From an uncultured Gammaproteobacteria bacterium (GTDB lineage: Bacteria > Patescibacteriota > Microgenomatia > 2-02-FULL-39-11): DNA of 64,000 bases. The notes below the pieces were generated by a model. The model made no database searches and had not been told where the DNA came from. It saw only the letters and a program-made list of their open reading frames with translations. The translations under genes were made by a program, and so were the position numbers. Shown here one piece after another: positions 9,221 through 32,243 of the stretch. Position 1 is the stretch's first letter. Every line of letters starts with the position of its first letter. The stretch covers positions 3,366 through 67,365 of the forward strand of contig CAYGXQ010000005.1 of the NCBI GenBank assembly GCA_964354025.1. The letters run 5' to 3'.

Positions 9221-9276
9221 TTAGCGTTTAGCTCCTAGCGTTTAGCGTTTCGTTTATAACTAGACGCTAGACGCTA
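9221..9276. repeat. Composite heptamer repeat: (TAGCGTT)n half followed by (CTAGACG)n half
   Basis: tagcgtttagctcctagcgtttagcgttt...ctagacgctagacgcta. Copies of the same family lie at 37037-37107 (inverted) and, split, at 37781-37813 plus 37959-37990. Confidence 0.7.
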
Positions 9277-10554: not shown

Positions 10555-10607
10555 AAGAGGTTTCTATCATACAAAAACGGGGCGGAAAAGAAAAGGAGGA
10601 AGATGGA

Positions 10608-11846
10608 TTAAATCTTTGTACCGCGCTCACCACGAAGATCAGCTTTAATATTAGGATCTTTTGACCACACAGTTATTTTATATTCCAGCAAGTCAAAAGC
10701 TCCTTCCCGTTTTATCTCTCCATCAGTACCGGTGTAATCTTTAAAGTCTGTTCTAATCAGTTCTATATGGGCAACAAATCTGAGTGACTCTAAAACTACC
10801 ACCTGACCTGCTCTGGCCGTTTCAATATTGCCAAATTGATACCTTAAATGCTGTCCCTCAAAAACAGGAATTCTGGCATTTGGAGATGTAATCGTACTGC
10901 AAACATTAGTATGACCTGTATTAGGATCATTTAGCTGAAATATTACTTGATCTGACAGATGAAAAACATAGGCATCGTTTACCGGATTATTTGAAGCATC
11001 ACGAGTTTCAAATAAATTATCTATTCTTAAGAAATTAAATCTTGCGCTATCTTCTTCATCAATAAAAAACATTTGGCTTATATCTGTACCATTATTTGTA
11101 AAACTAACCGAATGGCCAATCTGCCTCCAGCTTGGATCAACCGTTGCCTCATTTTTAGCTACTATCCTGCCAGACTGATAAGTATTTCCCTCAACTATTC
11201 TTAACCTTCCATCGGTTTCTGGTAAACTTGTCAAAAGGTGAGCTTCCTCGCTAGGAATAGGAATCGGCGTTGCCCCTGCCCGTGCCCCTTCCGCGTATCC
11301 GGCTGCTTGGATATCCTGCGTCATCTGCTGTCTCCAGGCAGCCAGAGTACCTGATAATCCCGGAGTTTCCATTGCTAATTTGCGCCAATCGGGGGATAAA
11401 TAATCATCCAGGATTACTAAATCCTCTTCGGTAAAACGATTTTGTTGGGAATCAGCCCTCCATTGTGTCGCCCTATGTATAAGATATTTAAGGTAACTTT
11501 TTAATGGTCCTCCATCTTGTGCCGGATCCTGAAATTGGGCTATTTGTCCGTCAGTAAGTTTATCATTTAAATCTAGGTAAGTTGTTAAAACATCCAACCG
11601 AAAATTTTTCTCGCCATCCTCCAAAGGAGCATTAACCAATAAAGACAGATAAACAGGCTCAATTATGTCATCAGTAACAAGATCTTCCGGCAGTTCTCCT
11701 CCCGGTGGCCGCCGTTTCTCTTGAAGCAGTTCGATTTGATGATTAACAACATTAAATATTGCGTTATGAATAGATAACTGACGAGTCTTCTCCGGTTTTG
11801 GCCGCGGATCTCCTGCTGTAAGTGGTGGATCTCCAATTAGTGACAT
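10608..11846 (-). CDS. Hypothetical protein
   Basis: Long ORF with no recognisable motifs. Confidence 0.5.
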   Translation of the reverse strand: MSLIGDPPLTAGDPRPKPEKTRQLSIHNAIFNVVNHQIELLQEKRRPPGGELPEDLVTDDIIEPVYLSLLVNAPLEDGEKNFRLDVLTTYLDLNDKLTDGQIAQFQDPAQDGGPLKSYLKYLIHRATQWRADSQQNRFTEEDLVILDDYLSPDWRKLAMETPGLSGTLAAWRQQMTQDIQAAGYAEGARAGATPIPIPSEEAHLLTSLPETDGRLRIVEGNTYQSGRIVAKNEATVDPSWRQIGHSVSFTNNGTDISQMFFIDEEDSARFNFLRIDNLFETRDASNNPVNDAYVFHLSDQVIFQLNDPNTGHTNVCSTITSPNARIPVFEGQHLRYQFGNIETARAGQVVVLESLRFVAHIELIRTDFKDYTGTDGEIKREGAFDLLEYKITVWSKDPNIKADLRGERGTKI

Positions 11847-12972: not shown

Positions 12973-13224
12973 CTATTTTGCGTAATGGTTGTTGATATCA
13001 ACAATTTCCGCTTCACCATCATCTGTCAGAATAAAAATCGCCCTGTATTTCCTGTCTATCCGGAAAGAATAGATCTTCAATTCTTTTGGCTCGAGAATTT
13101 CCGTGTGTAATGAGGGATGTTTCGGATTGACGGTGAAAAAAGCTATCTGTCTCTCCAGTTTCCGTTCCAGTCTATGTTTTTTGGCGTAATTTAAAAGATC
13201 AGCTCGGAGCGGCTTAACCGGCAT
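12973..13224 (-). CDS. RelE/ParE-family type II toxin
   Basis: 83 aa; RelE/ParE-like pattern; 11 nt overlap with the upstream RHH gene. Confidence 0.65.
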   Translation of the reverse strand: MPVKPLRADLLNYAKKHRLERKLERQIAFFTVNPKHPSLHTEILEPKELKIYSFRIDRKYRAIFILTDDGEAEIVDINNHYAK

Positions 13225-13477
13225 AGGCAGACGACTTTGATAATCCTTTTGTAACGCTGTTGATAAACTTGCTGTTGTATTTACCTGTTTTGGCCATTTT
13301 CTGCCTTACTTCCTCAAGAGGCCGCGGAGTAAAAACTTCCAATTCCAACTCTCCGGAAAAATATTTCCGCAGGAGAGCGCGGATAAATTCAGAACGGGTG
13401 GCATAACCCTGTCTGGAAGTTTCTGTCTCGACTAAACTGGCAACCTGTTCCGGTAAAGAAATCGTAAATGTAGTCAT
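13214..13477 (-). CDS. Ribbon-helix-helix (CopG/ParD-like) antitoxin
   Basis: 87 aa; the N-terminal ..ISLPEQVASLVETE..RSEFIRALLRKY pattern is typical of RHH. Confidence 0.6.
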   Translation of the reverse strand: MTTFTISLPEQVASLVETETSRQGYATRSEFIRALLRKYFSGELELEVFTPRPLEEVRQKMAKTGKYNSKFINSVTKGLSKSSAYAG

Positions 13478-13530: not shown

Positions 13531-15012
13531 CTATAACACACCCAAAACCTTGGTCAAAGCTTGGGTTTCGAATTGGTTGAAGCTCTCGATATCACCTACT
13601 GCTTGCTGATTCAAGCAGACGAAAATCGAATAAGAACCATCTGGTTTTATAAAGCCTCCCATATCGTGGTGATTCATGCCAACTTTAAATTCACCTTCAC
13701 CGATTATATGAAACGATGAAATGCTACTTGGAACTGGGTATTGCGTCTTAAAATATGCCAATCTTGTTTTATTATCTGTTTGTTCCGCTAAAGCCTGTAT
13801 GATAAAATCTCTGTCTTCATCTTGAAGTAATCGTCTATTAATAATATTCCCAAGTATTTTGCCTAAATCTCCAGCCGTAGTCATAAAAAGTTGATGCGAT
13901 ACACTATAGTCAGTCTTCGTCAGCTCTAGTTCTGTCTGTAATCTTTTTGCAATGATTTTACAGGATGCATCCCAATTTCTTGTGCCTGTCAATTGATAGA
14001 CCAATCCTTCATATACATATTCATCGTGATTCCTCAATAGTCTAAATATCGCCTCCCGAAAGTTTGGGTAAGTATGTCCCATAAAAACCACCGGATTTGT
14101 TAGATTGTATTTTGCCGGATTTTGACGGATATCCCGCAAGGCCAACATTGCTATAGGCAGTGTAATCAAACTCCAGGCTTCAAAGGGGACTTCCGAATTC
14201 ACGGCAATCACTTCACCTTTTTCATTTTGGGCAAAAAAGGCGGACTGCCCGGGCATTTCTTTTGCCAAACCGGCAATCTCCTCCTGCACTTCGGCGATCA
14301 ATACCGTCCTGTCTTTCACCGGTCTGGTCGGCTTTTCCAAAACATGTTCTTCCCTTTCCCGGTAAATGCCTCCTCCGCCATAACCCTGTCCGGGCGGGTT
14401 GACTGTTTCTATGACCGGTGGAGCTTGTATAGCTGAAGGTTTTTCCGGTATAAATTTGGAAAGAATCCATCCCAAACCGGCTGCACCGGCCGCACCTGCC
14501 AATCCGATCACTAATTTCCTTCTCGTTTGACAAAAACGTATCCGGTTATCAACCAGATAACCGAAATTGGCAATTTTCCTTGCGGCTGTCCGGTCAAGTT
14601 GATCAATGCTGATAGCCTGCGGGTCTCCCCATGCCTGACCGTTATATTTTCTCACCGCAAAAGATACCTCATCGCCTTCTATATTCAAGCAATAATATTT
14701 ATCCGGACTGGTTCTGGAAAAATAACCTACTTCGCTCAAAGCCTCACCTTGCAATCTCACTAAAAAACTGTCTCCCTCATCTAACTCCAAAACCGCCTTA
14801 TCTTTCTTAAAAGACACATCTCTGCCCAAAGCAAAAAGAAGAGTATCTTCTTGAGGTTTTTCCGCCACCACCGGCGTTCCCCTGAACAGCTCAAATTCCG
14901 TCAAGGCTTTAGCCAGCGGCCGGCTATGGTCTATCAACCACGAAGTATTTATCCTTTCTTCGCTTTGTGCCGGATTAATGGATAAAGCAGCTATCTCGCC
15001 AGTCATAATCAT
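13531..15012 (-). CDS. Membrane-anchored protein whose C-terminal domain resembles a degenerate class A beta-lactamase or transpeptidase fold
   Basis: Central TM (LVIGLAGAAGAAGLGWIL) and a GYGGGG tract. The C-terminal region aligns by eye with class A landmarks: FEAWSLIT for FxxxSxxK (Lys replaced by Thr), TRN for SDN, KVG for KTG, then a DMGGFIKPDGSYSIFVCL-like strand. Confidence 0.5.
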   Translation of the reverse strand: MIMTGEIAALSINPAQSEERINTSWLIDHSRPLAKALTEFELFRGTPVVAEKPQEDTLLFALGRDVSFKKDKAVLELDEGDSFLVRLQGEALSEVGYFSRTSPDKYYCLNIEGDEVSFAVRKYNGQAWGDPQAISIDQLDRTAARKIANFGYLVDNRIRFCQTRRKLVIGLAGAAGAAGLGWILSKFIPEKPSAIQAPPVIETVNPPGQGYGGGGIYREREEHVLEKPTRPVKDRTVLIAEVQEEIAGLAKEMPGQSAFFAQNEKGEVIAVNSEVPFEAWSLITLPIAMLALRDIRQNPAKYNLTNPVVFMGHTYPNFREAIFRLLRNHDEYVYEGLVYQLTGTRNWDASCKIIAKRLQTELELTKTDYSVSHQLFMTTAGDLGKILGNIINRRLLQDEDRDFIIQALAEQTDNKTRLAYFKTQYPVPSSISSFHIIGEGEFKVGMNHHDMGGFIKPDGSYSIFVCLNQQAVGDIESFNQFETQALTKVLGVL

Positions 15013-17627
15013 ATTCTCACTCCTGTTTGTCTGGCTTGGGCGCGGCGCAGACCAGCTCTTACTGCTTTTTGACCTCTTATCATTTCATTTCGCTTCGCGT
15101 TTGAAACTGCCCGGCTTTCTGCCCGGATACCGGCTCCTTGTTTTTCCTGATATTCTTTCCAACCAACAGGCCTTACCTCTCCTCCGGCTGATTGGGTTAA
15201 AGTGACCGGATGGACAGACTGCAGTCTGGTAGATACCGGTTGCTCGCCGTAATAAGCGGCGCCGGAGAGATATTTCGCCCGCGATTTGACTAATTTGTCC
15301 AAAGTCTTCAAAGCTTCTTTTTCATCTGCGTCCGTCAAAATAGCAATGATCGAGGATTTTTCGTCTGTACCGGCTTTGGCACGCAAAAGATGAAAAAGTT
15401 TGCCGTTAACCATGAAATGGCTAATATCTGCTTGATAACCAAGATCAGGTATTTCCGTTCCACCCTGAAAATCAGCCGGGGTGAGAGTTAAACCCGGACA
15501 AAAGCCGCTGGTACCGATTGCTCCCTTGGTTGAACAAACTTCTTGTCCATCTACTTTTATGCTTTTTATCACCGTCGGTTCCAGATGCCGGCCGCCCAGA
15601 TCAATGGAAAATGCAGTCATTAAATCAAGCATAGAAAATCTGCCTTTCTCTGTTTCTATCAATAAATCAGCTGGAGAAATATTTCCTGCCATAGCACTCA
15701 CCAAACTTGCTTTCTCTTTATCAATAATATCTAAAACCGCGATTGAATTGGTTCCTTTCAATTTAGCCGCTTCTTCAACCGCCACCTTTTGTATCCCCGC
15801 TTCCAGAGTGGTTTGCACCTCCACACTGTAATTGGGAAGATTCTTTCCAAACATCTTCTCCAATTCGCCAAAAACCATGCCATTATAAAAGTTTCTTTCC
15901 TGCGGCACTTCCGGAGTCAGGATTTTTACCTGGTCCAACTCTTTCAATATCTCTGATTTTTCATCCGGATTGACTGCTCCTTTCTTGATTAAATTATCCA
16001 AAACGTCTTTAGCATGATTTAATAAAGCTATCTTACCTTCCGATGTTGTTGGATCATAAGTTGTTGGCGACTGGATCATGGCGGTTAAAAGTAATGACTG
16101 GGCTCTATCTAAATCTTTGGCGTCTTTACCAAAGTAGATTTGGGCGGCTGCTGGTACCCCATTACACTGGTTGCCTAAATAGATTACATTCAAATACATT
16201 TCCAGAATTTTATTTTTCGGATAATTACGAGTGATTTCATCGGCCAACAACCATTCTTTCACTTTTCTTGGTAATGATTCTGTTCTTGCGTATTCCGGGC
16301 TAAATAACAAATTACGGGCTACCTGTTGGGTGATAGTCGATGCTCCTCCTTCTCTGATAAACGGCATGATGCTTTTTATTTGAGAAGGAGTAATCTTGCC
16401 AAAAAAAGCTTTGATGATATCCGGCACGTTATAACCGGCATTGGTGTAAAAAGTCGGATCTTCATTTCCGACTGCATAAGCGATCATATATTGTGATATT
16501 CCATCTATGGAAACATAATTTTTCAAACCGCCTTCGGGAGCAAATCTGACCGTTATCGGAGTGCCTGTACTATCTTCTATCGTCACCGGCTGATTTGCCC
16601 GCGTCTGTTCCGCCAATTCGGTTGTGGGAGGTAAATGCAATTTATCCATAAACATCGGCCTGACCCCCTGAGACCAAGTAGCGTCTAGAACTCCCAGCGG
16701 AAAATCAATTACATAAGGCTTGGTAATAGGACTGGTGGCCAACGCATAAGCCGCTATCGCCATTACCGCCGGACCTTTTAAGCGCAACAATTGCGCCAAA
16801 TATCTCTGATACAAGGCTTCCTGTTTAGCATGAAGAATTCGTGGCGTCGTGGCAGCCTTCCTTTCTGCTTTTTCTCTTGTTTGTTTTTCTTTCCTATCAG
16901 CCACCCTTTTCTCCACATCTGCCACAATCGCTTTCATCTTGCCTGGTTCTCCGGCCGCTCTTTCAACCTCAAAAATCAGATCAGAAGCACTAATGGCTAA
17001 TCGGATATATTTTCTTTCGCCGGCTTCCATCCGTTCTTCTTTTTTCCGCATCACTTCTCCCAAGACTTGGGTTAACCGTATCCTGCCAAGTGTTAAAGAT
17101 CTCTCTACTTCCTCAAGTAAATGTGAAACTGACATGGCCGGTCTGAAGGCGCTAGTAATCTCTTCCCTGAGTTGTTTGACAGCCGGAAAATCTTGGGGAA
17201 AGTGTTCTGTCAGTTGTTTAGTTGGATAAAAGTTAAGAACTCGAAAATCATTTTCGGTGATTGCATATAGAGTAGGATTGTCATGATATTGGGCTAATCT
17301 TTCTTCAAGGTATGCTCTCCAGGCAAGATAAGGAGCCTCTTTGGGATTAGCCGTTATCTGTTCTCTCAAGGCAATTGCCTGATCTTTACTGGCTTTCCCT
17401 TTAGATTCCAATATAGTCAGGATTTGTACATAACCTGCCGGTTCTACGCTGGTCACTATCAGGGCCAGAAGACTATCAGGATAAGGTTGTTCAGGATGAC
17501 TTTTCTGGCGTTGGATCTGCTCTGTTAAACAACCAAAGGCAATGTCTGACCGAGTGAGTGTTGGTCTTACCTCAGGTTCTACGTTTAGTCCTACCCTTAG
17601 TGGTGAAGTTAATTCAGCTGATATCAT
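15009..17627 (-). CDS. Large protein with an internal GT51 peptidoglycan glycosyltransferase (transglycosylase) domain; no transpeptidase motifs
   Basis: All five GT51 motifs seen: GNEDPTFYTNAGYN, GGASTITQQVARNL, RKVKEWLLADEITRNY, KNKILEMYLNVIYLG, RAQSLLLTAM. A TM segment precedes the domain. The N-terminal extension is about 285 aa. ATGA overlaps on both sides. Confidence 0.8.
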   Translation of the reverse strand: MISAELTSPLRVGLNVEPEVRPTLTRSDIAFGCLTEQIQRQKSHPEQPYPDSLLALIVTSVEPAGYVQILTILESKGKASKDQAIALREQITANPKEAPYLAWRAYLEERLAQYHDNPTLYAITENDFRVLNFYPTKQLTEHFPQDFPAVKQLREEITSAFRPAMSVSHLLEEVERSLTLGRIRLTQVLGEVMRKKEERMEAGERKYIRLAISASDLIFEVERAAGEPGKMKAIVADVEKRVADRKEKQTREKAERKAATTPRILHAKQEALYQRYLAQLLRLKGPAVMAIAAYALATSPITKPYVIDFPLGVLDATWSQGVRPMFMDKLHLPPTTELAEQTRANQPVTIEDSTGTPITVRFAPEGGLKNYVSIDGISQYMIAYAVGNEDPTFYTNAGYNVPDIIKAFFGKITPSQIKSIMPFIREGGASTITQQVARNLLFSPEYARTESLPRKVKEWLLADEITRNYPKNKILEMYLNVIYLGNQCNGVPAAAQIYFGKDAKDLDRAQSLLLTAMIQSPTTYDPTTSEGKIALLNHAKDVLDNLIKKGAVNPDEKSEILKELDQVKILTPEVPQERNFYNGMVFGELEKMFGKNLPNYSVEVQTTLEAGIQKVAVEEAAKLKGTNSIAVLDIIDKEKASLVSAMAGNISPADLLIETEKGRFSMLDLMTAFSIDLGGRHLEPTVIKSIKVDGQEVCSTKGAIGTSGFCPGLTLTPADFQGGTEIPDLGYQADISHFMVNGKLFHLLRAKAGTDEKSSIIAILTDADEKEALKTLDKLVKSRAKYLSGAAYYGEQPVSTRLQSVHPVTLTQSAGGEVRPVGWKEYQEKQGAGIRAESRAVSNAKRNEMIRGQKAVRAGLRRAQARQTGVRI

Positions 17628-20600
17628 ATTCGGCCTCTCCCCTGGTTAAACGTTCTTGCTTGTTGTCTGACAAATCTAGTTTGCGCTTTTTGGGCTGCCA
17701 GTCTTTGTGTCTTATCCCGGGCCGGCGTGCTGATCCCGTATGTTGCTCCCCTGGCCGGAGGTACTATCGAAGAAAGCTGGTCCTGCTCAAAAGCGGAAAT
17801 GACCGTTTTTATCCTCTCCTGAAGTTTTTGCAAAGGAATGGTACTGTTTTCCGTCTGCACTGTCACAATGGGTTGTCCCCGCACATCCGGCACTGCCTGA
17901 ATAAACAACTTACGGCCATCTTCTATTAAGAAACTCATCCCATCGGCAATCGATTCGTTCAGCGCATTCAACATCGGTGGGCTTAGATGCTGGCCTTTAT
18001 AAATTTCCTGCACCAAACCGGCAATATCAAAAGTACTGGTTTTGAAATGCAAGCGCCCATACGCATCATAATAATATTCGCTTTTTGACATCCGGTTGTT
18101 AGTCAGCAGGTATCGGTTTAATTTAACGGTATCTACTTTAAAAGGCCCGGTAGACGAAGCAAAACCAACCCGGTTAGCCAATGCTTCGATATATCTTTTA
18201 CTGGACGGATCGCCTTTGGCCGCCTGCACCACTGCTTCCCGGATGGAATATTCTTGTAATCCCGGGACATAAGTCCAAAACGCGGCAGAACCGCCGGCTT
18301 GGCTGGCAACCCAGATTTTATCGTCATAAGTAAGTTTATGATCTGAAATTAGCTTGTTAATTTCATCTAAAGAAACCAACAAAAGCATTTCCTGTGAAAA
18401 TCCGCCTGCTTCAAACTGGTTTGACGCATTAGCTTCAATTATCTTGCTATTCCTGTCTATGGCCACCAAAGAAGCTTGTCCTCCCGAAGCTTTCAGCGAT
18501 TCTGACAAGGTAAATTGCGCTGAAACCAGAGATTTTCCCTGACTATTGAGACGCAGATTGCCTTCTTTAAGGTCGGAAAGATCCGGCAGTTGGTTAAAAG
18601 AAACCGGCTGGACATTTTCGTTGAAACCTCTCGGGCCGTAGTAGTAATATTTACCATCCTGACCAACGAAGACATTGGGCGCTTCCAATTTTACCGGAGA
18701 TTTATCAACTCCCATCACTTCACCGTCAATCGGCCCAATGGTATAAGCCCTTATTTCTCCGGAAGAATCATAATAAATTATTTGATCCCGCACTAATGTC
18801 GGATTAGTCAGATTTGCCAACGAATCCACCGGCTGCCTTTTGGTTTGTTCTGAAGTGGCAAATAACTGATAAATTGTTTTCCCTTTTCCCGTTCCCCATG
18901 AAAAAGTAAAGGCTGTCTTTTGCGCCACCAGGTAATATTCGCCGCCGTTCCTCGGGAGCCAGACTTCTATCACACCATCCTGCAGTCTTTCATTATTTAC
19001 CACCCTGACCGGCTGTCCTTTTTGCAGATTGCCGTCAACCAGCGCCCAGACTGATTCCGTATCTCCAACGACGCCACCGCCGATTACACCTCCGCTTTGA
19101 AGAGTAGTCTGTGGCCTACTGGCTACTAACAAATTTTGTATGAGAATATATTTCGGGCCTTCTCCGATAGCCACCACTTCCAGTTTGCCTGAAGCGGGAT
19201 TGACGATAAAAAACCGGTCAGTCGCCACTTCCTTACCGTCTTTCCCTCTTTCGAAGTACCGGTAAACCGAAGCCGTATAACCGGGTTTGACATTTAATAC
19301 CCCGCCAAAATTTGCCAAGTCAATGGTCATCTTTATATCTTTCTGGCCTACCAGATAGCCGCCGTCTTTTGTCACCAATACTTGCGGTTCATATAAATAA
19401 TCAGCGAGACTGACTTCTGTTGCTTTGGTTCTTTGCAAAATCTCGGCTAAAAATTGAGTTCTTCCCAAATCCTCCGGTCTTCTTCCATGCGACCTTGATA
19501 ATTCTCTGATATTAATTTCTTCTTTAAACTGTTTTTTGGGATCGAAATCACCTCTGAATCGGGCTTTCCCCAACTCTTCCGGTTTTCCATCACCGGCTCC
19601 CAAAAAGATCCCGTTTTCCAAAACATAAATAGTCGGCAAACCGTCGTGCGCGGCAATGGCGTAAATATTCTGGTTGCCATAAACGAAGCTGGTAGCCTGG
19701 GCCACCAACTGGTTTCCTTCGGCATCAACCCCAAAATCCACATAGACAGTTTTGCCGGCGGCATTGGTATAAATCAAAATCCCTTTATCATTTTCGGTGA
19801 TGATATTTAAACCCCAAGCTGGATCCTGCAGGGTATAAGTCGTTGAATCGAAGATGCCGTCATTGCCAAAACCGGCTCTCATATCGTCAAATTGCTCTTT
19901 GGTCTTGATATCTTTGGCAAAAAATACTTTTTGCCCCGGTTTAACCAGTTCAATCTGCTGGTAATTATTCGGATCACTAGACCGAGTCCAACCGACGATC
20001 TCTCCAGTTCTTAAAATCAAAAACTGGGGAACCGGTTGGCCTTTATCGTCACTACGGAAAGGCGTCCGGTAAATCGGTTTATCCGGATTATTATCCAAAA
20101 TCAGCTTACCACCCTCATCCAAGACTTTTACCGGACTGCCATCTTGCATCTTACCGAAATCCGGATAACTGCCATCGGGATTAGTCAGGTATCTCACAAA
20201 CTGGGTGGCTCCCGCAGTCTCCGTTGCAGTCCGCTCAAGATATGGCACCGGCCTTTGGGAACCGTAAAGAGCATTTTTTTCCCCTTCAAAATTGTCAATA
20301 TCCAACCTTATGCCAACCCCTGCCGGAATGAAATGATTCGGATCCTGTGCGGTGGTCGTACGGGCTGGCAGCTGATAGCCTTTTTCCGGATAAGCGATTG
20401 CTTGTTCAACGCCTGGCAAAACTTTAACTGAATGGCGGGGTACTGTCACCAGGTCATATCCGACTACTTTTTTAGTAACTCCCTCATCTGTCCGATCAAT
20501 GCTTACCATCGGCACCACTCTTGTCTGCGCTTCGACTTCAGCGGTTGTATATGGCTTGTAAGGAGTAAGTAATTGGGCGGCGGTAAAAACCGCAGTCGAA

Positions 20601-23600
20601 GCCACAGCCGGTATTACTTTGGCTGCCAGTTTTTTTCTTTTTTCTCTTACTTGTGCTCCGCGTTCTCTGATTCCAACTACTAATTCCTGATCATCTTCTC
20701 TGATCGGCCGCAAACCGGTCCCGGTGTTGACGATTGAGCCAACCGGGAAATTTGGATTGAAACTGCTGTCTCTGACGATACAAACTAACTCCTTCGTCTG
20801 ATGATCCTCAATGATAATTACTTGGGCAATGTAATCACGATGGAAAAGAGCGTCCACAGCCAGCATCGCTTCCTGCAGGATGGGAGAGGCAAATCGTTTC
20901 CGCGGGTCACGCGGATAACGTTTGATAGCGACAGCATAAACCTGATTTTTAGGATCCATCAGTTTTGACTTTACCATTTGTGACTCAGCCACCGCGGGAA
21001 TATTTAAGAGATCCGTCCTTGCAAACATGGTAGTTGCTCCTTTCCCCACTGGATGAAGCTTCATGCTTTTCTCTGTTGTAATGTCGTAGGCGGCAAAAGA
21101 CGATCTTGTTTTTCCTTTTTTATCGGTTACCGGTTGCCTGGTAATCACCAGTTCCGCCTGCCGTCCATCTCCCAACATAGAACCAATGGCTACTCCCGCT
21201 GCTTCAGAACCGGCTGAATAATAACCGGTCGACGTATGATCCCTCCAACCGCGGATGATTTGTTGATAATCAACAGATGGCAATCTTTCAACCGGAATCG
21301 GGTCTTCTTCCTGACAATTATTCGCGGCGGCCGGATCAATCACAAAACACCTGATCCTTCTTTCTTCACCTTCCATCATCTCATACAAAACCACACTGGG
21401 ATGTCTCAAAGGGCTATTTGGTCTGGGAGCGATAACCGCCTCTAATTTTTGTTCACCGGCCGTATTTGTTAAAACTGAAAATCCAAATTGCTGGGCAATG
21501 CCGGGTTTATTTCCTTCTGATCCGATCGGATTTAATTGGTGAATCGGCCCGTAATTTTTCTCCAATGTATCCTCTGTTGCGCTTTCAAATCTCGCTATAT
21601 CTCTTTTTCCGCCCGACTCGTCATAAACTACCGGCCGGTTTTGGTCCGGATCCCAGACGATCCTAAAATACATACCATCAACCGTTATTTCAAACACCTC
21701 CCCGAAAGCTTTCCGTCTTTTCTCCAGATTTGTCTCGAGTAATTTTGCCGTTGCCTTAGCGGTCACTTCCCGGGCTGAAGATAAAATTCTCTCTTCAAGT
21801 ATTTCTGATAGAGGACTGGAAAACCCTATTCCCAAGGCAAAAGCTTTATTACCCGGCTGTCTGCTCCGGTCAATGGCCACCAGTTCTTTCCGGCCGCCCC
21901 CCCGCTCGATGATAAAGACTTCGCCAATCGCGGCGGCTCTTCCGGCCATTTCATCTGTCACCAGTTCCGGCCTTTCTCCGCTGGCTATAAATCTCAAATG
22001 ATAGATATTATCTGACCCGCCCAAATGGTATTCCTGTTTCAACCTTGAAAACTCTGAACTTTCCGCAAATCCACCTCCCTGCCAGACTCTGGTAGGCACT
22101 CTGGTGATTTTATACTGGTTTCCCTGTCCGTCAATCAAAACAACCTCATGCCGGAGAGCGGCCTTCGAAGGCGGAATATAAAGTTCCAAAGTTTTGTCAC
22201 CCAAAATATCAAGTTGGACAATTTCATCCGGTTTAAAAACGGCACGGGCTATGGCCGGATGAAAAGGTGTCCCTTCAACATATCCTCTGTCGAAACCGGT
22301 ACAAAGCTTTCTCGGGTCATCATCTTCAAGCGGCGCAATATCCGGATCTGTCCCCTCAGGATAAACAAAAGATAAAATCGGTACGTTTACTCCTTCTACA
22401 CGGGTATTAATAAGCTGGACTCTCGGTAAATGTCGTGTTCTCCGGTTATATGGTAAATATTGTGGATTGCCATCAGGATCGCGGGTTATGCAAACAGCGT
22501 AAATTTCTTCATTTAAGGGATTAACGGCCATATCTCTAACCGGATGAAAAGAGATATAACCCAACCCCGGATCAACCAGTCTCACTTCTGTCCTATTTCC
22601 CTCGGTTCTGGCATCAACCATGAATTCAATTCCCTGTCCCGTTTGTTCTTCCAGCCTGACCAAAGTCGGTTGCGTTAAAGATAATTCTTCGCTTGGCATA
22701 CCTGCTTCAACCTGAATCTGACTTTCCCGTAAAAGGCGTTTTTCTACTTCATTTCTCAGAGCTTTTTCCGCTCTTTGCGCTAAGTCAGAAGTAGCTGCCC
22801 GGAAAACCGCTTCCGCGCCTTTTTGCACCCCCGCTTGGGCGACTTGAGCCACAGTTTTGCCTGCTTCGCCCAACCAAACACCGGCGTCAAACAAAGCTGT
22901 TCCTGTTTCCCTTGCCCGCTCCACAACCTCTTTTCCGGTGAGCAGCAAGGCTCCCTGGGCACTTGGTAGAATCGGAACAGGATGAACTAAAAGTGGCAAT
23001 TCCTGTTGGTAAAACACAAAGTACGGATCATTAGGCGGCATCCGCTCTAAAACTTCCCGGTAACGTTCCGTCACCCAGGCAGCCATCACTGCTTCTGACG
23101 GGCTAACCGTCCGGCCGTTTTCATGTCCAGCCTCCCATACCCTCGGCCACAAATACTTGGATATCACCCGGGCGTTGGTGTCGGTCATGGCTAAATCCGG
23201 CGAAACAGCCGGACCCAGCATCCTTCCAATCAGTTCGTCTCTGACAAAAGAGATATCGTCTACCTCAAAAGTTTTCGGTAAAAGATAAAGAAGGGCAGCC
23301 GTCTTTCCGTCGATCGGCCGGTTACTCGTCCGATACTCAAGCACGGTCTCCAAAATGGCGCGAAGCAGCGGCTGTGAAATCTCATTTGAGCCAAAACCGG
23401 CGCGCGGTTCTGTCCGGGGGGCTAAAAATTCATCACCGATGGCTTTGTAATAAGCGTAAATTCTATCGTTTCGAAGCTCATCGTGGCGGTTGAGGATATC
23501 AACGCTGATACCTATCATCTTACAGTCCACCTCGTTTAAATTTCCGCCGTATAATTCCAGATAACCGGCCCGCAATCCCAAATGCCCGGTGATGATCCCC

Positions 23601-23743
23601 AGCATCCGCCGGTCTCTTTCCTGTCTGTCCAAACTGGCGCAATCCATGAGGTGTTGTACTGTTACCTGCTGGTCAAGAGAAGGTAGAGGTAAAGGCAATG
23701 GCCGGGCTTCCGCTGGCGGCGGTGGGGCAGGTGTTTCCATCAT
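17624..23743 (-). CDS. Giant (2039 aa) hypothetical protein, first gene of the overlapping operon
   Basis: Uninterrupted ORF; Pro-rich N-terminus; no recognisable catalytic motifs. Confidence 0.7.
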   Translation of the reverse strand: MMETPAPPPPAEARPLPLPLPSLDQQVTVQHLMDCASLDRQERDRRMLGIITGHLGLRAGYLELYGGNLNEVDCKMIGISVDILNRHDELRNDRIYAYYKAIGDEFLAPRTEPRAGFGSNEISQPLLRAILETVLEYRTSNRPIDGKTAALLYLLPKTFEVDDISFVRDELIGRMLGPAVSPDLAMTDTNARVISKYLWPRVWEAGHENGRTVSPSEAVMAAWVTERYREVLERMPPNDPYFVFYQQELPLLVHPVPILPSAQGALLLTGKEVVERARETGTALFDAGVWLGEAGKTVAQVAQAGVQKGAEAVFRAATSDLAQRAEKALRNEVEKRLLRESQIQVEAGMPSEELSLTQPTLVRLEEQTGQGIEFMVDARTEGNRTEVRLVDPGLGYISFHPVRDMAVNPLNEEIYAVCITRDPDGNPQYLPYNRRTRHLPRVQLINTRVEGVNVPILSFVYPEGTDPDIAPLEDDDPRKLCTGFDRGYVEGTPFHPAIARAVFKPDEIVQLDILGDKTLELYIPPSKAALRHEVVLIDGQGNQYKITRVPTRVWQGGGFAESSEFSRLKQEYHLGGSDNIYHLRFIASGERPELVTDEMAGRAAAIGEVFIIERGGGRKELVAIDRSRQPGNKAFALGIGFSSPLSEILEERILSSAREVTAKATAKLLETNLEKRRKAFGEVFEITVDGMYFRIVWDPDQNRPVVYDESGGKRDIARFESATEDTLEKNYGPIHQLNPIGSEGNKPGIAQQFGFSVLTNTAGEQKLEAVIAPRPNSPLRHPSVVLYEMMEGEERRIRCFVIDPAAANNCQEEDPIPVERLPSVDYQQIIRGWRDHTSTGYYSAGSEAAGVAIGSMLGDGRQAELVITRQPVTDKKGKTRSSFAAYDITTEKSMKLHPVGKGATTMFARTDLLNIPAVAESQMVKSKLMDPKNQVYAVAIKRYPRDPRKRFASPILQEAMLAVDALFHRDYIAQVIIIEDHQTKELVCIVRDSSFNPNFPVGSIVNTGTGLRPIREDDQELVVGIRERGAQVREKRKKLAAKVIPAVASTAVFTAAQLLTPYKPYTTAEVEAQTRVVPMVSIDRTDEGVTKKVVGYDLVTVPRHSVKVLPGVEQAIAYPEKGYQLPARTTTAQDPNHFIPAGVGIRLDIDNFEGEKNALYGSQRPVPYLERTATETAGATQFVRYLTNPDGSYPDFGKMQDGSPVKVLDEGGKLILDNNPDKPIYRTPFRSDDKGQPVPQFLILRTGEIVGWTRSSDPNNYQQIELVKPGQKVFFAKDIKTKEQFDDMRAGFGNDGIFDSTTYTLQDPAWGLNIITENDKGILIYTNAAGKTVYVDFGVDAEGNQLVAQATSFVYGNQNIYAIAAHDGLPTIYVLENGIFLGAGDGKPEELGKARFRGDFDPKKQFKEEINIRELSRSHGRRPEDLGRTQFLAEILQRTKATEVSLADYLYEPQVLVTKDGGYLVGQKDIKMTIDLANFGGVLNVKPGYTASVYRYFERGKDGKEVATDRFFIVNPASGKLEVVAIGEGPKYILIQNLLVASRPQTTLQSGGVIGGGVVGDTESVWALVDGNLQKGQPVRVVNNERLQDGVIEVWLPRNGGEYYLVAQKTAFTFSWGTGKGKTIYQLFATSEQTKRQPVDSLANLTNPTLVRDQIIYYDSSGEIRAYTIGPIDGEVMGVDKSPVKLEAPNVFVGQDGKYYYYGPRGFNENVQPVSFNQLPDLSDLKEGNLRLNSQGKSLVSAQFTLSESLKASGGQASLVAIDRNSKIIEANASNQFEAGGFSQEMLLLVSLDEINKLISDHKLTYDDKIWVASQAGGSAAFWTYVPGLQEYSIREAVVQAAKGDPSSKRYIEALANRVGFASSTGPFKVDTVKLNRYLLTNNRMSKSEYYYDAYGRLHFKTSTFDIAGLVQEIYKGQHLSPPMLNALNESIADGMSFLIEDGRKLFIQAVPDVRGQPIVTVQTENSTIPLQKLQERIKTVISAFEQDQLSSIVPPARGATYGISTPARDKTQRLAAQKAQTRFVRQQARTFNQGRGRI

Positions 23744-23939
23744 AAGACAACCTAACTATATCTTTGTAATATCAAAAATATCTATTTTCAAAAAAATCAG
23801 TGATAATTTTATAGTAAGCAGATTTTGTGAAAAAAACAAGAGAGGAATTTAAAGGAAATTAGAGGATTGTATTGAATATCACTTCAATATATCAAAATAT
23901 AATTATTAATAACAAAAATTGAAAAAATGCGAGTAGAAT

Positions 23940-24278
23940 TTATTTCTTAGGTGGCTGGGCTTTTGTCTGAAGTTCTGGAAATAGATAGTTTTTGGAGATG
24001 GTGTCACGCAGTTTCTCTACAAATCCTTCAATCGTCACCCCTGTCCGATCCTGAAACCTTTTCCTGATCTCCTCTTCCTGCCCTTTGGTATCCGTGATCT
24101 GTTCGATAGCCGTCAAATCCTCGTCAGTGAGAAAATAGAATAGAGCCATGTAAAGCTGGGCGGCGGAAAACTTCATGGCCGCGGCGATGAATTGCCCAAC
24201 CTCTTCTTCGCTTTTCTCCGCTTTCAGCTTATCGATAAATCCCAGATATAAATCGTCTTGCGCCATATATTTTCTCAC
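23940..24278 (-). CDS. Small acidic hypothetical protein
   Basis: ORF; 4 nt overlap with the upstream gene. Confidence 0.45.
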   Translation of the reverse strand: MRKYMAQDDLYLGFIDKLKAEKSEEEVGQFIAAAMKFSAAQLYMALFYFLTDEDLTAIEQITDTKGQEEEIRKRFQDRTGVTIEGFVEKLRDTISKNYLFPELQTKAQPPKK

Positions 24279-25630
24279 GGTTTTAAACTTGTTAATACGG
24301 CATTTGCTGATTGAAATAATCTTGCTAAACCATCATATGTCAGTAAATTCGGTATGTCACCTCTCGCATGCATGGCCTTTAACGCGGCATCCGCTTGGTC
24401 CGGATTAGCCGGTATCATTTTAAGTACTTCATTAACTGTATGCAGAACTCTTTCTGCCGAAGCTTGTTGCATCGCCGGTGTCATATCAACTGTACTTGGA
24501 ATATTTGTTCCATAAATTTGTTCTGCTACATCCTTGACCGCATCCCGCCATACATTAACGATATCACCCGTCATTCCATATTGACGAACAAGTGAATCTG
24601 TTGCTTTTATTCCTACATTCCAGGCATCTTGCGCACCGGTGATACTGGTTGATAAATGTGATTCTGCACTTCCCGGACCGGCTCCCGGAATTGTAACTCC
24701 GGTAACTCCACTATCAGGCGCACCCGGCGGCGCTACAGACCCAACATGTCCTCTGGCTCCGGGAACATCTATACCGGCTACGGCTCCCGGTGGTGGTGCT
24801 CCTCCTCCACTCGGCGCTCCTCCACCAGCTGGAGTTGTAAGATCAGCACGTCCTATTGCATGGATCGCATCCGCTCTTGATACGGCTCCTACTCCCTGTG
24901 GTAAAACTTTTTCAACGTTAGTGACATCAATCCCTCTTCCTGTCCCGCTACTTAATCCAGCATCAACCTTTCCAAGATCTTGTCTTGCTAGGTTGTCGGC
25001 CGCAACTACACGGAAATGCTGACCGATACCGATACCGATTCCTCCTCCTATCCCCCAAAATAAAGCAATTTGTTTAAAAATATTATCAATCGCTTCAATT
25101 CCCTTAATACGTTTTTCGAATGCTTCTAATCTTGGAGCTTTTTGTTCATCAGATAATGCCTTCCAACCTTTCGGTCTTCCTATTGGTTCTGAAATTCTTG
25201 CGATAGAAGAAGGCTTCAACAAAGCTACGGTAACCAAAGCGGCATCAGTAAGCGCTAAAGAAACATATCCCGCCGTTGTTCCGGCAACGTATGTGATAGC
25301 CCCTTCGAACACAGCGGCGGCGGCGACTGTGCCGACTGCCGGTAAACATCTTTTTGCATATTCTCCAAGTTTCGGTAGATTACTTTTTACCCAACCACCA
25401 AATCTTTCACCCGCTATTTCGAGAGGATCTCTTTCTTCTTTTTCTCCCGCCACGGCTGGCGTCACAGATAAGGGTACTTCTGTAGCAGGTGTGGGAGGAG
25501 TATAGTCTGCAGGAAGCATTGATCGAATTGAGGGAGCTGCTAACACTGGTTCTTCGACTACAGGAGGAACATACCCCCTGGGGAGCATGTCATTGATAGA
25601 TAAACGAGAAGGTGCTGGAGCATCTGTCAT
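24275..25630 (-). CDS. Pro/Gly-rich membrane protein, hypothetical
   Basis: TM segments; GGGAPSGGGAPPPG-type low-complexity tracts. Confidence 0.5.
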   Translation of the reverse strand: MTDAPAPSRLSINDMLPRGYVPPVVEEPVLAAPSIRSMLPADYTPPTPATEVPLSVTPAVAGEKEERDPLEIAGERFGGWVKSNLPKLGEYAKRCLPAVGTVAAAAVFEGAITYVAGTTAGYVSLALTDAALVTVALLKPSSIARISEPIGRPKGWKALSDEQKAPRLEAFEKRIKGIEAIDNIFKQIALFWGIGGGIGIGIGQHFRVVAADNLARQDLGKVDAGLSSGTGRGIDVTNVEKVLPQGVGAVSRADAIHAIGRADLTTPAGGGAPSGGGAPPPGAVAGIDVPGARGHVGSVAPPGAPDSGVTGVTIPGAGPGSAESHLSTSITGAQDAWNVGIKATDSLVRQYGMTGDIVNVWRDAVKDVAEQIYGTNIPSTVDMTPAMQQASAERVLHTVNEVLKMIPANPDQADAALKAMHARGDIPNLLTYDGLARLFQSANAVLTSLKP

Positions 25631-25662
25631 ACATAATTTCTCATTTCAATATTAAATCAATA

Positions 25663-28296
25663 TTATCCCTGCGGGTGAGCCGCCTGTGCTTGTGATGCTT
25701 CTTCCTGGAATAGCGCTTGACAAGCCATCATCAATACTACCCCTATACTGGCGCCTGCTTCCCACCTAAAACCGGCTTTTTTCTCAAGTATTTTCAACAA
25801 TCCTTTCATCTTATCTGGATTTGTGATACCTAAATCTCTGAATGCTTTAAAGATTGGATGCAAGGGTGATTTTTGTTGCTGTAATTGATCAATAAAAGCT
25901 ATTCTCCAGGCATCGTCATGATCTGTATTAACAAAATCAACTATTACATTGCGTAATTCTCTTTGATTCCGCGCCTCTTCTAATGATGCGCGAACCATCT
26001 CATAATCTTGTGACTCGTAATATGCCTGCAATTCAGCATTGATCGTATCTAGGCTATCTGCATGATCTTGTCCAACAGTCGCATCAAGGATTTCATTTCT
26101 TGTCACCGGTGGGCCTTGTGTTTCCGCCGCTGTTCCCGCTTCCGGTCCGACCGGAGGGACTCCAGGCACTCCCGTTTCCGGAGGAGTCGGCGGTCTTGCC
26201 GGCGGTGCCGGCGGAGCTTCAACTAACTTGGCATTTTCTGCTTCTCCTATTTCCACATTCAACACTCTTCTTGCCAGCTCTTCAGGTGAACCGAGGAAAG
26301 TATTACCATTAGCAAGGACTGTTGTTATTTGTATGTCAATATCTCCACCTATTTCCCGCATCATATCTCTGACTGTATTTAAAGACACCTGAACACCATC
26401 ATCTCTAAGCAATGCTTTTATTATCGCATCAGCGTCTATCTTCGGCATTTTACCTTTTGCTCCCCCTAAATTAACCTCAGACAACGGATTAAGAATGGTG
26501 ACTATTTGTCCTACCAGGGCTTGTCTCTCCGGAACTGATGCATCCACTGACTGACTCATTAATCTTAATAATTCTGGTTCTCTGCTTAAGGCTTTTCCAA
26601 ATTTTTTAGTCGCTGATTCGGCAAGTTTTCTAGTTTGCTCAACCGCCTCATCAAGTTCCGCAATATCTTTCCTTACTCCAGTAATTTTTTGAACCTCACC
26701 ATCCGGAGGCATTGCATATTTCTCTAGATACGCTTTCATGACCGCAGCCCGGACATAACCATGTGCAGTATCATATAATTTCGTTTGAATACCATAAGCT
26801 TCACTGTATCCTTTACCCACACGCTTCCCTTCTCCATCTACTCTCCATCTTTCAGCTTTTGTCTGGGCGTCTTTGTAATCTTCTTGACGTTTCCCCTGTA
26901 CAGCTTTATCAGTATCTAAGGCTGTAGACAGAGCTACGTAATCTGCTAAATCATCATCTGTAATTCTTGCTTGTAAATATCGAGAAACTCCCCCAATAGT
27001 ACTCAAATCATGCCCTTGTTTTGTCTGCCTGTCAGATAAATTAATCTTAGCTGCTACCGTTAAAATATCTTTAATCTGCTGTGACTTGTGTTCTTTTGTT
27101 ATTTTCCACTCTTCGGTTGGTTGCAATAATCGTTTTACTGCGTCAGCAATCACGTCCGGCGAATCTGTGGTAGAAATTCGCATCATCTGTAATAACTCCA
27201 CTTCCGCATCGTACGAGTCTCTCTTACCTGAAAATGCTTGTATAGCTTGCTCATCTGCAGTTATTCTTGCATCTGCCTGATCTAACACTGCTTTTGCTTT
27301 TAATACTCCGGCTGACTGCTCTATGTCATATTCATACCTTGTGCGCGTTTCTGCTGCTGGTTGACTTGGATCTTCAACCTCTTTTGTCCCACAAGCAACA
27401 ACTTTGTAATCAATCCCTTCTTCTCCTCCTGTTGGAGGGGTGGTTGAAGGAGTCCATGTAGGTATTTTTGTCTTATCTGGTATATTTCTGGCTCCTCCCA
27501 TTCTTCCCTTTGGTGGATATGTCGCTATTATCCATTCCGTCGGTTGTGTTGGATCTGAAACTCGCATCGTCCTAACCTTTGTCACTTCCTCTATCTCGAC
27601 CTGTGGAGCGGAAAATTCTGCCGCTTCCTTTTCCAATGCCGCTAATTTTTCCCGCAAATCTTGGATAGTTTGTGCGGTTTTTAATTCATGTCCTTCACAA
27701 ACAACCACTGCAGTCTTTAAATTTTCTTGTTGAGGCTTTGTTAATTCTGCAAGCGCGGTCTCCAAAAGATATGTTGCTTCTTCAAGTGGTATCGCCACTC
27801 CGCTCTTTACTTCATCTCTTTTTCCTTGCTCTAAAGCGGCTATTCTCTTTCTCAATTGAGCAGCATCTAGCACCTGTACTGGACCTGCTTTATCGGAAAA
27901 ATCATAACCTGTCCCTGTTAACACCTGCTTATTTACTATCCGTGGTGTGGCTAAACTAATGATATTCTGATCTACCGCTGCCGGTTGGGCTGGCGGGGGT
28001 GGTGGAGCTTCTGCCTCTAGTGGAGTTATTACTATTACTGGTTCTGGTGCTCTTGGAGCCGCTGGTGCTATTGCTTCAAATTGCGGTGGTTCTGCTGGTC
28101 TGGCCGGAGCCGCCGGTTCTGTCCGTCTGGAAACCGCGGGAGAAGGAGGTGCCGCTGGCGCGGCAGGTTTCGCGGCCGGGGCAGTTGGTGGTAATAAAGT
28201 ATTTAATTGTCTACCTAAATCTGCTGTATTTCCTGGTGCTGGTGGTGGTGCATCTGCTGATCTCATAAAATCCTCCTTCAATAGATTTTTGGGCAA
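25663..28296 (-). CDS. Large (877 aa) Pro/Ala-rich hypothetical protein
   Basis: Long ORF; N-terminal PAAP-rich region. Confidence 0.6.
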   Translation of the reverse strand: MPKNLLKEDFMRSADAPPPAPGNTADLGRQLNTLLPPTAPAAKPAAPAAPPSPAVSRRTEPAAPARPAEPPQFEAIAPAAPRAPEPVIVITPLEAEAPPPPPAQPAAVDQNIISLATPRIVNKQVLTGTGYDFSDKAGPVQVLDAAQLRKRIAALEQGKRDEVKSGVAIPLEEATYLLETALAELTKPQQENLKTAVVVCEGHELKTAQTIQDLREKLAALEKEAAEFSAPQVEIEEVTKVRTMRVSDPTQPTEWIIATYPPKGRMGGARNIPDKTKIPTWTPSTTPPTGGEEGIDYKVVACGTKEVEDPSQPAAETRTRYEYDIEQSAGVLKAKAVLDQADARITADEQAIQAFSGKRDSYDAEVELLQMMRISTTDSPDVIADAVKRLLQPTEEWKITKEHKSQQIKDILTVAAKINLSDRQTKQGHDLSTIGGVSRYLQARITDDDLADYVALSTALDTDKAVQGKRQEDYKDAQTKAERWRVDGEGKRVGKGYSEAYGIQTKLYDTAHGYVRAAVMKAYLEKYAMPPDGEVQKITGVRKDIAELDEAVEQTRKLAESATKKFGKALSREPELLRLMSQSVDASVPERQALVGQIVTILNPLSEVNLGGAKGKMPKIDADAIIKALLRDDGVQVSLNTVRDMMREIGGDIDIQITTVLANGNTFLGSPEELARRVLNVEIGEAENAKLVEAPPAPPARPPTPPETGVPGVPPVGPEAGTAAETQGPPVTRNEILDATVGQDHADSLDTINAELQAYYESQDYEMVRASLEEARNQRELRNVIVDFVNTDHDDAWRIAFIDQLQQQKSPLHPIFKAFRDLGITNPDKMKGLLKILEKKAGFRWEAGASIGVVLMMACQALFQEEASQAQAAHPQG

Positions 28297-32210: not shown

Positions 32211-32243
32211 ACAACCCCTCCCCCTCTCCAGCGGGGAAGATTA
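32211..32243. repeat. Hairpin repeat family CCCCTCYCC..TTTCCGGCGGGGRA, copy a, at the 3' end of a minus-strand gene
   Basis: Four related copies: 32211-32243, 33201-33237, 33779-33809 and 34124-34150. Confidence 0.6.

Follow-up and report, generated by a model that had tools for sequence, protein, structure and literature searches.

Organization of the operon

In this study we describe an operon of three minus-strand genes located in a 64,000-nucleotide stretch (hereafter the window) of contig CAYGXQ010000005.1 from an uncultured bacterium assigned to the Patescibacteriota. In the list of open reading frames (ORFs), the first gene of the operon (17624..23743) encodes a giant protein of 2039 amino acids (aa). 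The second gene (15009..17627, 872 aa) was recognized by Pfam and NCBIfam scans as encoding a GT51 peptidoglycan glycosyltransferase, and the third (13531..15012, 493 aa) encodes a protein predicted to consist of a cytoplasmic N-terminal domain, a transmembrane (TM) helix and an extracellular domain of the beta-lactamase fold. Both junctions are formed by a 4-nt ATGA overlap: the giant stop codon and the GT51 start codon share positions 17624..17627, and the GT51 stop codon and the start codon of the third gene share positions 15009..15012. The coordinates given for the three genes and their overlaps in the initial annotation of this DNA were thereby borne out. Shine-Dalgarno (SD)-like sequences, GGGGAGAGG and AGGAGTGAG, precede both internal ATG codons by 5-7 nt and are located within the preceding genes; the terminal residues 'GRGRI' and 'GVRI' of the upstream proteins are encoded by the SD sequence of the next gene. 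ATGA overlaps combined with internal SD sequences represent the classical layout of translational coupling, which suggests that the translation of the three genes is coupled.

The three ORFs are uninterrupted and were recovered independently in the NCBI and Logan assemblies. An independent gene caller, applied to a contig of this organism from Logan, placed the start of the giant gene at the same position. The giant gene is separated from an upstream block of genes (23940-28296) by a gap of 196 nt in which a consensus scan revealed promoter-like hexamers, including the minus-strand site TTGATA-18-TACAAT (23866..23895), which is a match to the consensus only and carries no functional evidence. 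No direct repeats were found between the window's own operon junctions.

Hydropathy analysis revealed positively charged N-terminal flanks at the TM helices of all three proteins. Judged by these features, all three products appear to be single-pass proteins of N-in/C-out (type II) topology with large cytoplasmic N-terminal domains. The basic C-terminal tails of the giant and the GT51 protein of the window were also considered as possible homologues, and this was rejected (z -0.6).

The middle protein is a predicted GT51 polymerase derived from class A PBPs

The GT51 domain of the middle protein (residues 369-544; 15996..16523, minus strand) matched the Pfam family Transgly (PF00912) with an E-value of 5e-44 and a score of 150.2 bits (cut-off 27). 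Its catalytic motifs are intact: the glutamate of motif 1 (ED..F....G), motif 2 (GASTITQQ, residues 428-435) and motif 3 (RK..E, R454-K455..E458) are all present, and E389, D390, F393, G398, G428, S430-Q435, R454, K455 and E458 occupy invariant columns in an alignment of 30 sequences (29 homologues). The AlphaFold2 (AF2) model reached predicted local distance difference test (pLDDT) values of 85-97 across the domain. When this model was compared with known structures by Foldseek, the TMt values were 0.83-0.88 for the GT51 structures of Aquifex PBP1A (3d3h, 2oqo and 3nb7; up to 36% identity) and 0.64-0.74 for 3vmq, 6ftb and 3hzs; the structure 2olv was also matched. The closest sequences to this part of the protein belong to PBP1A-family proteins from metagenome-assembled genomes (MAGs) of Chloroflexota and the candidate phyla radiation (CPR), at 30-36% identity. 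At the same time, the NCBIfam scores of the middle protein remained far under the family cut-offs (e.g., 175.6 vs 508.75 bits for PBP_1a_fam).

The domain is preceded by an N-terminal region (residues 1-300; 16728..17627, minus strand) that AF2 and hydropathy predict to be a helical cytoplasmic domain ending in a TM helix at approximately residues 280-300. A long helix spans residues 228-298, with pLDDT values mostly of 45-83. The complete GT51 motif set following a TM helix that had been read from the sequence at the outset was thus confirmed, and the long N-terminus, which had been described there as a cytoplasmic coiled coil, is predicted to be helical.

On the other side of the GT51 domain, residues 578-655 (15663..15896, minus strand) represent a remnant of the interdomain linker of class A penicillin-binding proteins (PBPs), extending to the '..SAMAG' strand. 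When an alignment of sequences from two lineages (the window organism and the one relative described below) was compared with 28 class A PBPs by hhalign, this region was matched with a probability of 95.7% (E 9e-9). The homology ended at approximately residue 655, which in class A PBPs corresponds to the strand ahead of the transpeptidase core, and residues beyond this point did not align with transpeptidase profiles in hhalign. The remaining part (residues 656-872; 15012..15662, minus strand) consists of a non-transpeptidase C-terminal region and a basic tail rich in Q, R and A. Residues 656-782 are conserved in the relative, and the AF2 model of residues 654-872 is unreliable (pLDDT <45). 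No match to PF00905 was detected in the middle protein by the Pfam and NCBIfam scans, and neither a [KH][TS]G nor an SxN motif was found in residues 570-872, where both SxxK strings fall in the tail. The C-terminal region is thus free of transpeptidase motifs, as initially annotated. Because the homology stops after the linker and PF00905, KTG and SxN are absent, the middle protein is, by its sequence, a derivative of a class A PBP that has kept the polymerase domain and the linker but no longer has the domain for cross-linking.

The third protein carries a beta-lactamase-like domain without catalytic motifs

In the third protein, residues 259-463 (13624..14238, minus strand) matched the Pfam family Beta-lactamase2 (PF13354) with an E-value of 6e-11 and a score of 42.5 bits (cut-off 22), covering profile positions 3-209 of 214. 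In the alignment, the register of which is tentative, Ser281 is kept within the string SLIT and the KTG motif is missing. A motif scan of residues 190-493 revealed neither SxxK nor [KH][TS]G, and the domain is likely to be a pseudo-enzyme as judged from these motifs. It is attached to the membrane through residues 1-185 (14458..15012, minus strand), which comprise a predicted cytoplasmic domain of 166 residues and a TM helix (residues 167-185) whose positively charged N-terminal flank predicts the N-in/C-out orientation; this part is homologous to the product of the last gene of the relative's operon. These results agree with the initial description of the downstream protein as membrane-anchored and carrying a degenerate fold of the beta-lactamase type.

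Among 5.8 billion clusters, the third protein retrieved only itself, phmmer did not find any beta-lactamase in the PDB, and sequence and profile searches of the PDB gave no significant match. A pairwise comparison with TEM-1 did not reach significance, even with the domain that Pfam had recognized, and was for this reason abandoned as a test.

The polymerase and the beta-lactamase-like domain could in principle be the two parts of a split PBP, with the downstream protein supplying the lost transpeptidase activity, as had been suggested for this locus. Our results did not support this version. The domain belongs to PF13354 and not to PF00905, it lacks SxxK and KTG, and the relative carries an unrelated HExxH-containing domain at the same place.

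The giant protein is predicted to span the membrane and has a conserved C-terminal half

The giant had been described as a protein of 2039 aa without any recognizable domain. This was upheld in the Pfam and NCBIfam scans, in which no family was matched either by the whole protein or by five segments of it; PHROG and PADLOC also gave no match. Kyte-Doolittle analysis placed a TM helix, AKVIPAVASTAVFTAAQLL, at residues 1041-1059 (20567..20623, minus strand), and the relative has a TM helix at the aligned position. The helix is directly preceded by the sequence REKRKK, which predicts that about 1040 residues are cytoplasmic and about 980 extracellular. The predicted cytoplasmic half (residues 1-1040; 20624..23743, minus strand) starts with 25 Pro-rich residues, has no detectable homologue and gave no Pfam match at E<=1. 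The predicted extracellular half (residues 1060-2039; 17627..20566, minus strand) is conserved in the relative, as revealed by BLASTP. Searches of the PDB with the sequences or profiles of both halves and with a profile of three sequences yielded nothing significant, and no internal repeats were found within the giant. A word-based search with the whole giant gave zero matches and did not return the giant itself, the exact sequence being absent from the collection. HMMER with residues 1041-2039 found 0 matches among 1.84 billion representatives and also missed the fragment from the relative, so truncated products are apparently not represented there.

Moderate evidence points to a probable beta-lactamase-fold domain without SxxK and KTG at residues 1731-2009 of the giant (17717..18553, minus strand). 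In hhalign this region (approximately residues 1731-2009) aligned with the domain of the third protein in register over 148 columns (E 5.5e-4, probability 30%). The Smith-Waterman comparison of the giant C-terminal domain with the beta-lactamase-like domain gave a z value of 3.8, which was the same for the window giant and the giant of the relative. In addition, the relative's giant weakly matched PF13354 (E 0.057), and the three-sequence profile weakly picked the PDB beta-lactamase 8eo7 at two co-linear places. On these alignments, the giant probably ends in a second SxxK-less beta-lactamase fold that is paralogous to that of the third protein.

The position of a very large gene next to a GT51 gene recalls another arrangement. 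In E. coli, the genes encoding an alpha-2-macroglobulin (yfhM) and PBP1C (pbpC) are co-transcribed, and the pair has been proposed to cooperate on the cell wall (PMC4498604). The operon described here could therefore be a divergent analogue, in which the giant traps attacking hydrolases and the GT51 protein repairs the wall. The gene for a very large envelope protein lies immediately before the GT51 gene, as in yfhM-pbpC, and in a model of low confidence mostly beta structure is predicted for the giant's extracellular part. However, the giant contains no match to alpha-2-macroglobulin, MG or thioester domains and no C[GL]EQ motif, it is predicted to be bitopic with a cytoplasmic half of 1040 residues and not a lipoprotein, and the GT51 protein is devoid of both the transpeptidase and the BiPBP_C domain of PBP1C. 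We find this explanation very improbable.

The operon is conserved in one related lineage and diverges rapidly

Among the 5.8 billion clusters, the sole non-canonical relative of the GT51 protein was a protein of 860 aa (P0002/P0121) that is also without PF00905 and is 33% identical to the window protein over query residues 367-782, which extend from the GT51 domain into the region that follows. Three contigs of this relative (L004, L002 and L001) could be joined into one reconstructed operon through overlaps of 100% and 99.9% DNA identity. It consists of a partial homologue of the giant, the GT51 gene, a gene for a LytR-CpsA-Psr (LCP) protein of 676 aa and a gene for a protein of 625 aa, with a 4-nt overlap at every junction; the overlap between the giant stop and the GT51 start on L002 is the same as in the window. 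The giant homologue is 29% identical to residues 969-2033 of the window giant (BLASTP, E 4e-93). Conservation of gene order had been set as a test beforehand, and the order giant, GT51 and terminal gene with 4-nt overlaps indeed recurs in one relative. An NlpC/P60-like motif was suspected in the C-terminal extension of the relative's giant and was dropped, since it had no Pfam support.

The LCP protein (PF03816, E 7e-27) is bitopic and encoded directly after the GT51 gene, and the terminal protein of 625 aa carries an HELFH (HExxH) motif. The N-terminal domain and TM helix of the terminal protein are homologous between the two lineages (BLASTP E 1e-7; Smith-Waterman 88, z 14, residues 38-185 vs 47-203), whereas the extracellular heads are unrelated (z -1.3). 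Furthermore, the GT51 and LCP proteins of the relative share their N-terminal 166 residues, and their tails are homologous as well (z 13). At the DNA level we observed a direct repeat at positions 3142-3441 and 5721-6020 of L002, with 300 nt identical and 737 nt at 97% identity (blastn). The repeat is composed of the DNA for a C-terminal tail and the first 166 codons, it stands before both the GT51 and the LCP gene, and its spacing equals the length of the GT51 gene. This sequence arrangement suggests that the LCP gene of the relative arose by duplication of the junction cassette, in which case the three-gene order of the window would be the ancestral core. The junction repeat may also mediate recombination by which heads are swapped. 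Contig L001 of the relative MAG breaks inside the junction repeat.

Short resemblances were also noticed at the starts of the proteins. The first residues of the window GT51 protein (MISAELTSPL) resemble VISADVQLPV of the relative's 625-aa protein, and those of the third protein (MIMTGEIAAL) resemble MTGGEMILPS of the relative's GT51 and LCP proteins; each covers about 10 residues, too short for significance.

Comparison of the flanks revealed that an M16 peptidase encoded a few genes downstream is 68% identical between the two genomes, compared with 33% for the GT51 protein and 29% for the giant. With the M16 flank being 68% identical in both genomes, the loci are probably orthologous and the operon evolves fast. 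In the window, the region 9274-11846 (minus strand) contains this M16 peptidase (426 aa), preceded by an orphan protein of 412 aa that is possibly its inactive partner subunit; in the Logan contig L005 an NDK gene follows the M16 gene. A scan of species-representative genomes with the alignment of the giant C-terminal part recovered nothing but a further contig of the MAG from this relative, and no match was found in JGI metagenomes with motifs from the giant and from the C-terminal region of the GT51 protein. In all collections searched, homologues of the giant and the third protein were found in no lineage beyond this one relative.

The loss of the transpeptidase and beta-lactamase-fold motifs and the presence of orphan proteins with almost no homologues could be taken to mean that the locus is a decaying PBP locus or an artefact of mis-assembly without coherent function. 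This explanation, already disfavoured, is hardly credible. The ORFs of 2039, 872 and 493 codons are uninterrupted in the independently obtained NCBI and Logan sequences, the catalytic residues of GT51 are intact, and the order, overlaps and long ORFs have been kept in a relative whose proteins are 29-33% identical, implying that purifying selection has acted over a long time.

The pattern seen in the terminal gene also bears on another explanation, namely that the operon encodes a transmembrane envelope sensor. In this case muropeptides, D-Ala-D-Ala termini or beta-lactams outside the cell would be recognized by the SxxK-less domains and the signal passed on by the large cytoplasmic domains, by the logic of BlaR1/MecR1 or PASTA kinases, with the GT51 protein as the regulated output. 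Both the third protein and the giant are predicted to join a non-catalytic fold of the penicillin-binding type outside the cell to a sizeable cytoplasmic domain via one TM helix, and the cytoplasmic domain of the terminal gene product is conserved while its outer head is variable. However, Pfam, NCBIfam and PDB searches detected no kinase, M56 protease, helix-turn-helix or other signalling domain in the cytoplasmic parts, no regulator gene is adjacent to the operon, and the relative has an HExxH domain in place of the putative sensor head. A sensory role therefore seems improbable to us.

A proposed complex for cell-wall synthesis or remodelling

We propose that the three genes are translationally coupled in an operon specific to this lineage and that their products form a membrane-anchored complex of cell-wall synthesis or remodelling in an uncultivated groundwater bacterium, which is probably a member of the CPR/Patescibacteria. 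We consider the chances that this is correct to be about even. All extracellular domains identified in the two operons are wall-related or resemble such domains (GT51, LCP, the beta-lactamase fold and possibly an HExxH peptidase). The general theme of a cell-wall module, which had been put forward together with the split PBP, was thus strengthened by the LCP gene of the relative. The substrate of GT51 enzymes is lipid II, on which they act at the outer face of the membrane of the cell that produces them, and the GT51 polymerase is the sole predicted active enzyme of the window operon. The proteins of the two operons have a common bitopic plan with large cytoplasmic domains, and their expression appears to be coupled stoichiometrically.

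In the proposed complex, the GT51 protein would build glycan strands from lipid II and leave them uncross-linked, as expected when the GT51 domain is intact and the transpeptidase core is lost. The giant, with its approximately 1040 cytoplasmic and 980 extracellular residues, would act as a scaffold that organizes the complex. The beta-lactamase-fold domains of the third protein and the giant, which lack SxxK and KTG, would serve as non-catalytic binders of peptidoglycan stem peptides or as regulators, and would position or control the polymerase. The cytoplasmic domains would link the complex to an intracellular partner. The design would be modular, each unit consisting of a cytoplasmic domain, a TM helix and a wall-active head outside the cell that can be exchanged. 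The related lineage would have gained its LCP ligase when the junction cassette was duplicated, and its terminal gene carries an HExxH-containing head.

Several observations weigh against this proposal. The polymerase has no evident transpeptidase partner, as transpeptidase-like sequence is found nowhere in the 64-kb window. The single-sequence AF2 model of the extracellular half of the giant is unusable (mean pLDDT 31), and the assignment of a beta-lactamase fold to the giant C-terminus rests on weak statistics, with the hhalign probability of 30%. In the third protein, the weakly aligned SxxK site corresponds to S281-L-I-T284 in a tentative register, with Lys replaced by Thr. The evidence for conservation is thin, since only two lineages carry the operon. 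Finally, the operon sits among RHS, toxin-antitoxin and Abi genes and outpaces a housekeeping neighbour in divergence, which fits a role at the cell surface or in interactions no less well than one in core wall synthesis.

A more far-reaching version of the cell-wall complex can also be formulated, although we regard it as quite unlikely. The operon could encode an undescribed cell-wall organizer in which the giant scaffold assembles interchangeable proteins of the adaptor-TM-head type (GT51, LCP, pseudo-beta-lactamase and HExxH hydrolase) into one machine. Its stoichiometry would be set via translational coupling, and its heads would be reshuffled at the junction cassette. Such a machine would couple an intracellular cue to localized wall growth in ultra-small bacteria, and it would be distinct from the assemblies of SEDS with class B PBPs and of class A PBPs with Lpo proteins.

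Should the proposal be correct, a class A PBP has been rebuilt as a transpeptidase-less polymerase within a dedicated complex that also includes a scaffold of 2039 residues and pseudo-enzymes of the penicillin-binding fold. Few peptidoglycan synthase assemblies are known, and the complex would extend them by a new architecture. It would also exemplify the reuse of beta-lactamase and PBP folds as non-catalytic modules, and the swapping of heads between the two lineages would illustrate the way in which envelope machines become diverse. Because the operon is carried by only two lineages, both of them uncultivated, its practical reach is limited.

Genomic neighbourhood of the operon

Directly 3' of the operon lies a type II toxin-antitoxin pair (12973-13477, minus strand), in which a HigB/ParE-like toxin (12973-13224) is combined with an RHH/CopG antitoxin (13214-13477; PF01402, E 4e-5). 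A strong promoter-like site accompanies the pair at 13514-13485. On the other side, the Pro-rich block upstream of the giant (23940-28296, minus strand) measures 4.4 kb and not 14 kb, as had been stated initially. It encodes three orphan proteins, p877, p451 and p112, for which only a weak match to the SpiroCoCo coiled-coil family was obtained. In p877, an N-terminus rich in Pro and Ala is followed by a long helical part and a C-terminal TM helix (residues 845-863), and p451 has a Pro-rich N-terminus, two to three TM segments and Gly/Pro-rich stretches. The block is adjoined upstream by a gene for an AAA_14 + DUF4143 ATPase (28362-29726, minus strand) for which PADLOC gave a match to PDC-S01, a candidate defence family (E 3e-65); a second ATPase of this type is encoded at 39254-40633 (minus strand).

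A 2274-aa RHS-repeat protein is encoded after a protein with fibronectin-III and purple-acid-phosphatase-N domains (1130-8778, plus strand), and further fragments of the RHS core are present at 41169-41900 and 45522-46853 (both minus strand). These suggest that the RHS loci of the window are polymorphic toxin loci. Genes for an AbiEii nucleotidyltransferase toxin and AbiEi antitoxin-like proteins are located at 32241-32918 (minus strand) and 34217-35574 (plus strand). The Abi, toxin-antitoxin and RHS genes together give the region the character of a variable island. As for a phage or defence origin of the operon itself, PADLOC did not match any of its genes, the only PHROG match was the generic GT51 family phrog_33002, and neither a tblastn search of phages and plasmids with the giant nor a scan of viral contigs found anything.

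The arginyl-tRNA synthetase (ArgRS) encoded at 58842-60917 (minus strand) is unusually long (691 aa); its best solved relative is the ArgRS of Pyrococcus horikoshii, and the E. coli enzyme aligns with it over the C-terminal 287 residues only. This is at odds with the NCBI label 'Gammaproteobacteria' of the relative's MAG, which we did not adopt; an origin from the CPR or another deep-branching group is likely. At 61001-61744 (plus strand) the window encodes a protein resembling thermonucleases that bears a 'sunset domain' at its C-terminus (NF051437, E 1e-11), and at 50691-51677 (minus strand) a protein with a signal peptide of the SipW-dependent type (TIGR04088); both may be hints to the taxonomy.

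The surroundings of the operon raise the question of whether its products work at the contact with another cell. An episymbiont could use such a surface apparatus for attachment to its host or for remodelling of the interface: the 980-residue extracellular half of the giant and the exchangeable heads would act on or bind the wall of the partner and not serve growth in general, and the GT51 protein would locally build or thicken the cell's own wall at the contact site. The very fast divergence of the operon (29-33% identity vs 68% for the neighbouring gene) is consistent with this, as are the cassette-like swapping of the heads, which recombination at the near-identical junction repeat would favour, and the abundance of RHS toxins, toxin-antitoxin and Abi genes nearby. 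The contig of the relative in ENA originates from groundwater of the Hainich aquifer, from the 0.1-um filter fraction, and Patescibacteria make up about 68% of the reads in such fractions (PMC8672522). However, Pfam and NCBIfam revealed no adhesin, pilus or toxin domain in the operon proteins, the heads are all membrane-tethered and none is secreted, and the GT51 substrate is the lipid II of the producer's own membrane. The episymbiotic lifestyle is also an assumption. We consider a contact apparatus rather unlikely.

Comparison with known systems

The GT51 protein resembles the class A PBPs (PBP1A, PBP1B and PBP1C) in having an N-terminal TM anchor, a GT51 domain with all motifs and the linker leading to the 'AMVG' strand. 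Unlike these enzymes, it has about 200 residues and a basic tail in place of the transpeptidase core with its SxxK, SxN and KTG motifs, and it carries a cytoplasmic N-terminal domain of about 280 residues. Functionally, it is predicted to be a GT51-only enzyme similar to the monofunctional glycosyltransferases MtgA and S. aureus Mgt. The Mgt enzymes are stand-alone proteins of about 240-270 aa, whereas the window protein comprises 872 aa, retains the class A linker and is encoded in an overlapping operon; its score for TIGR02070 was 88.8 vs 182.65 bits. It was also distinct from PBP1C, as the scores for TIGR02073 and NF008414 were 106.1 vs 494.2 and 66.5 vs 1121 bits, respectively, and BiPBP_C (PF06832) was not detected.

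The third protein resembles the class A beta-lactamase-like hydrolases of PF13354 in covering almost the full profile. It differs from them in being membrane-anchored behind a cytoplasmic domain of 166 residues and in the absence of SxxK and KTG. BlaR1 and MecR1 combine a multi-pass M56 metalloprotease domain with a C-terminal acylatable sensor domain that contains SxxK; in the third protein we found no Peptidase_M56 domain, a single TM helix and no SxxK. The LCP ligases are connected with the system through operon context, as their gene is present in the operon of the relative only and not in the window. Likewise, the giant could not be assigned to the bacterial alpha-2-macroglobulins (YfhM/ECAM, MagD), since it gave no Pfam or NCBIfam match to them and has no C[GL]EQ motif. 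Thus, a bifunctional class A PBP, PBP1C, an alpha-2-macroglobulin, an active class A beta-lactamase and a BlaR1-type sensor were all rejected, as the defining features of each were missing.

The arrangement of the genes is shared with yfhM-pbpC, where the gene for a large envelope protein also lies directly 5' of the gene for a GT51 protein. The two systems differ in that half of the window giant is predicted to be cytoplasmic, in the lack of alpha-2-macroglobulin, MG and thioester features, and in the extra third gene for a protein with a beta-lactamase fold. By analogy, the operon would function most like a class A PBP or a monofunctional GT51 enzyme that has been set in an accessory complex, and its gene logic resembles that of yfhM-pbpC.

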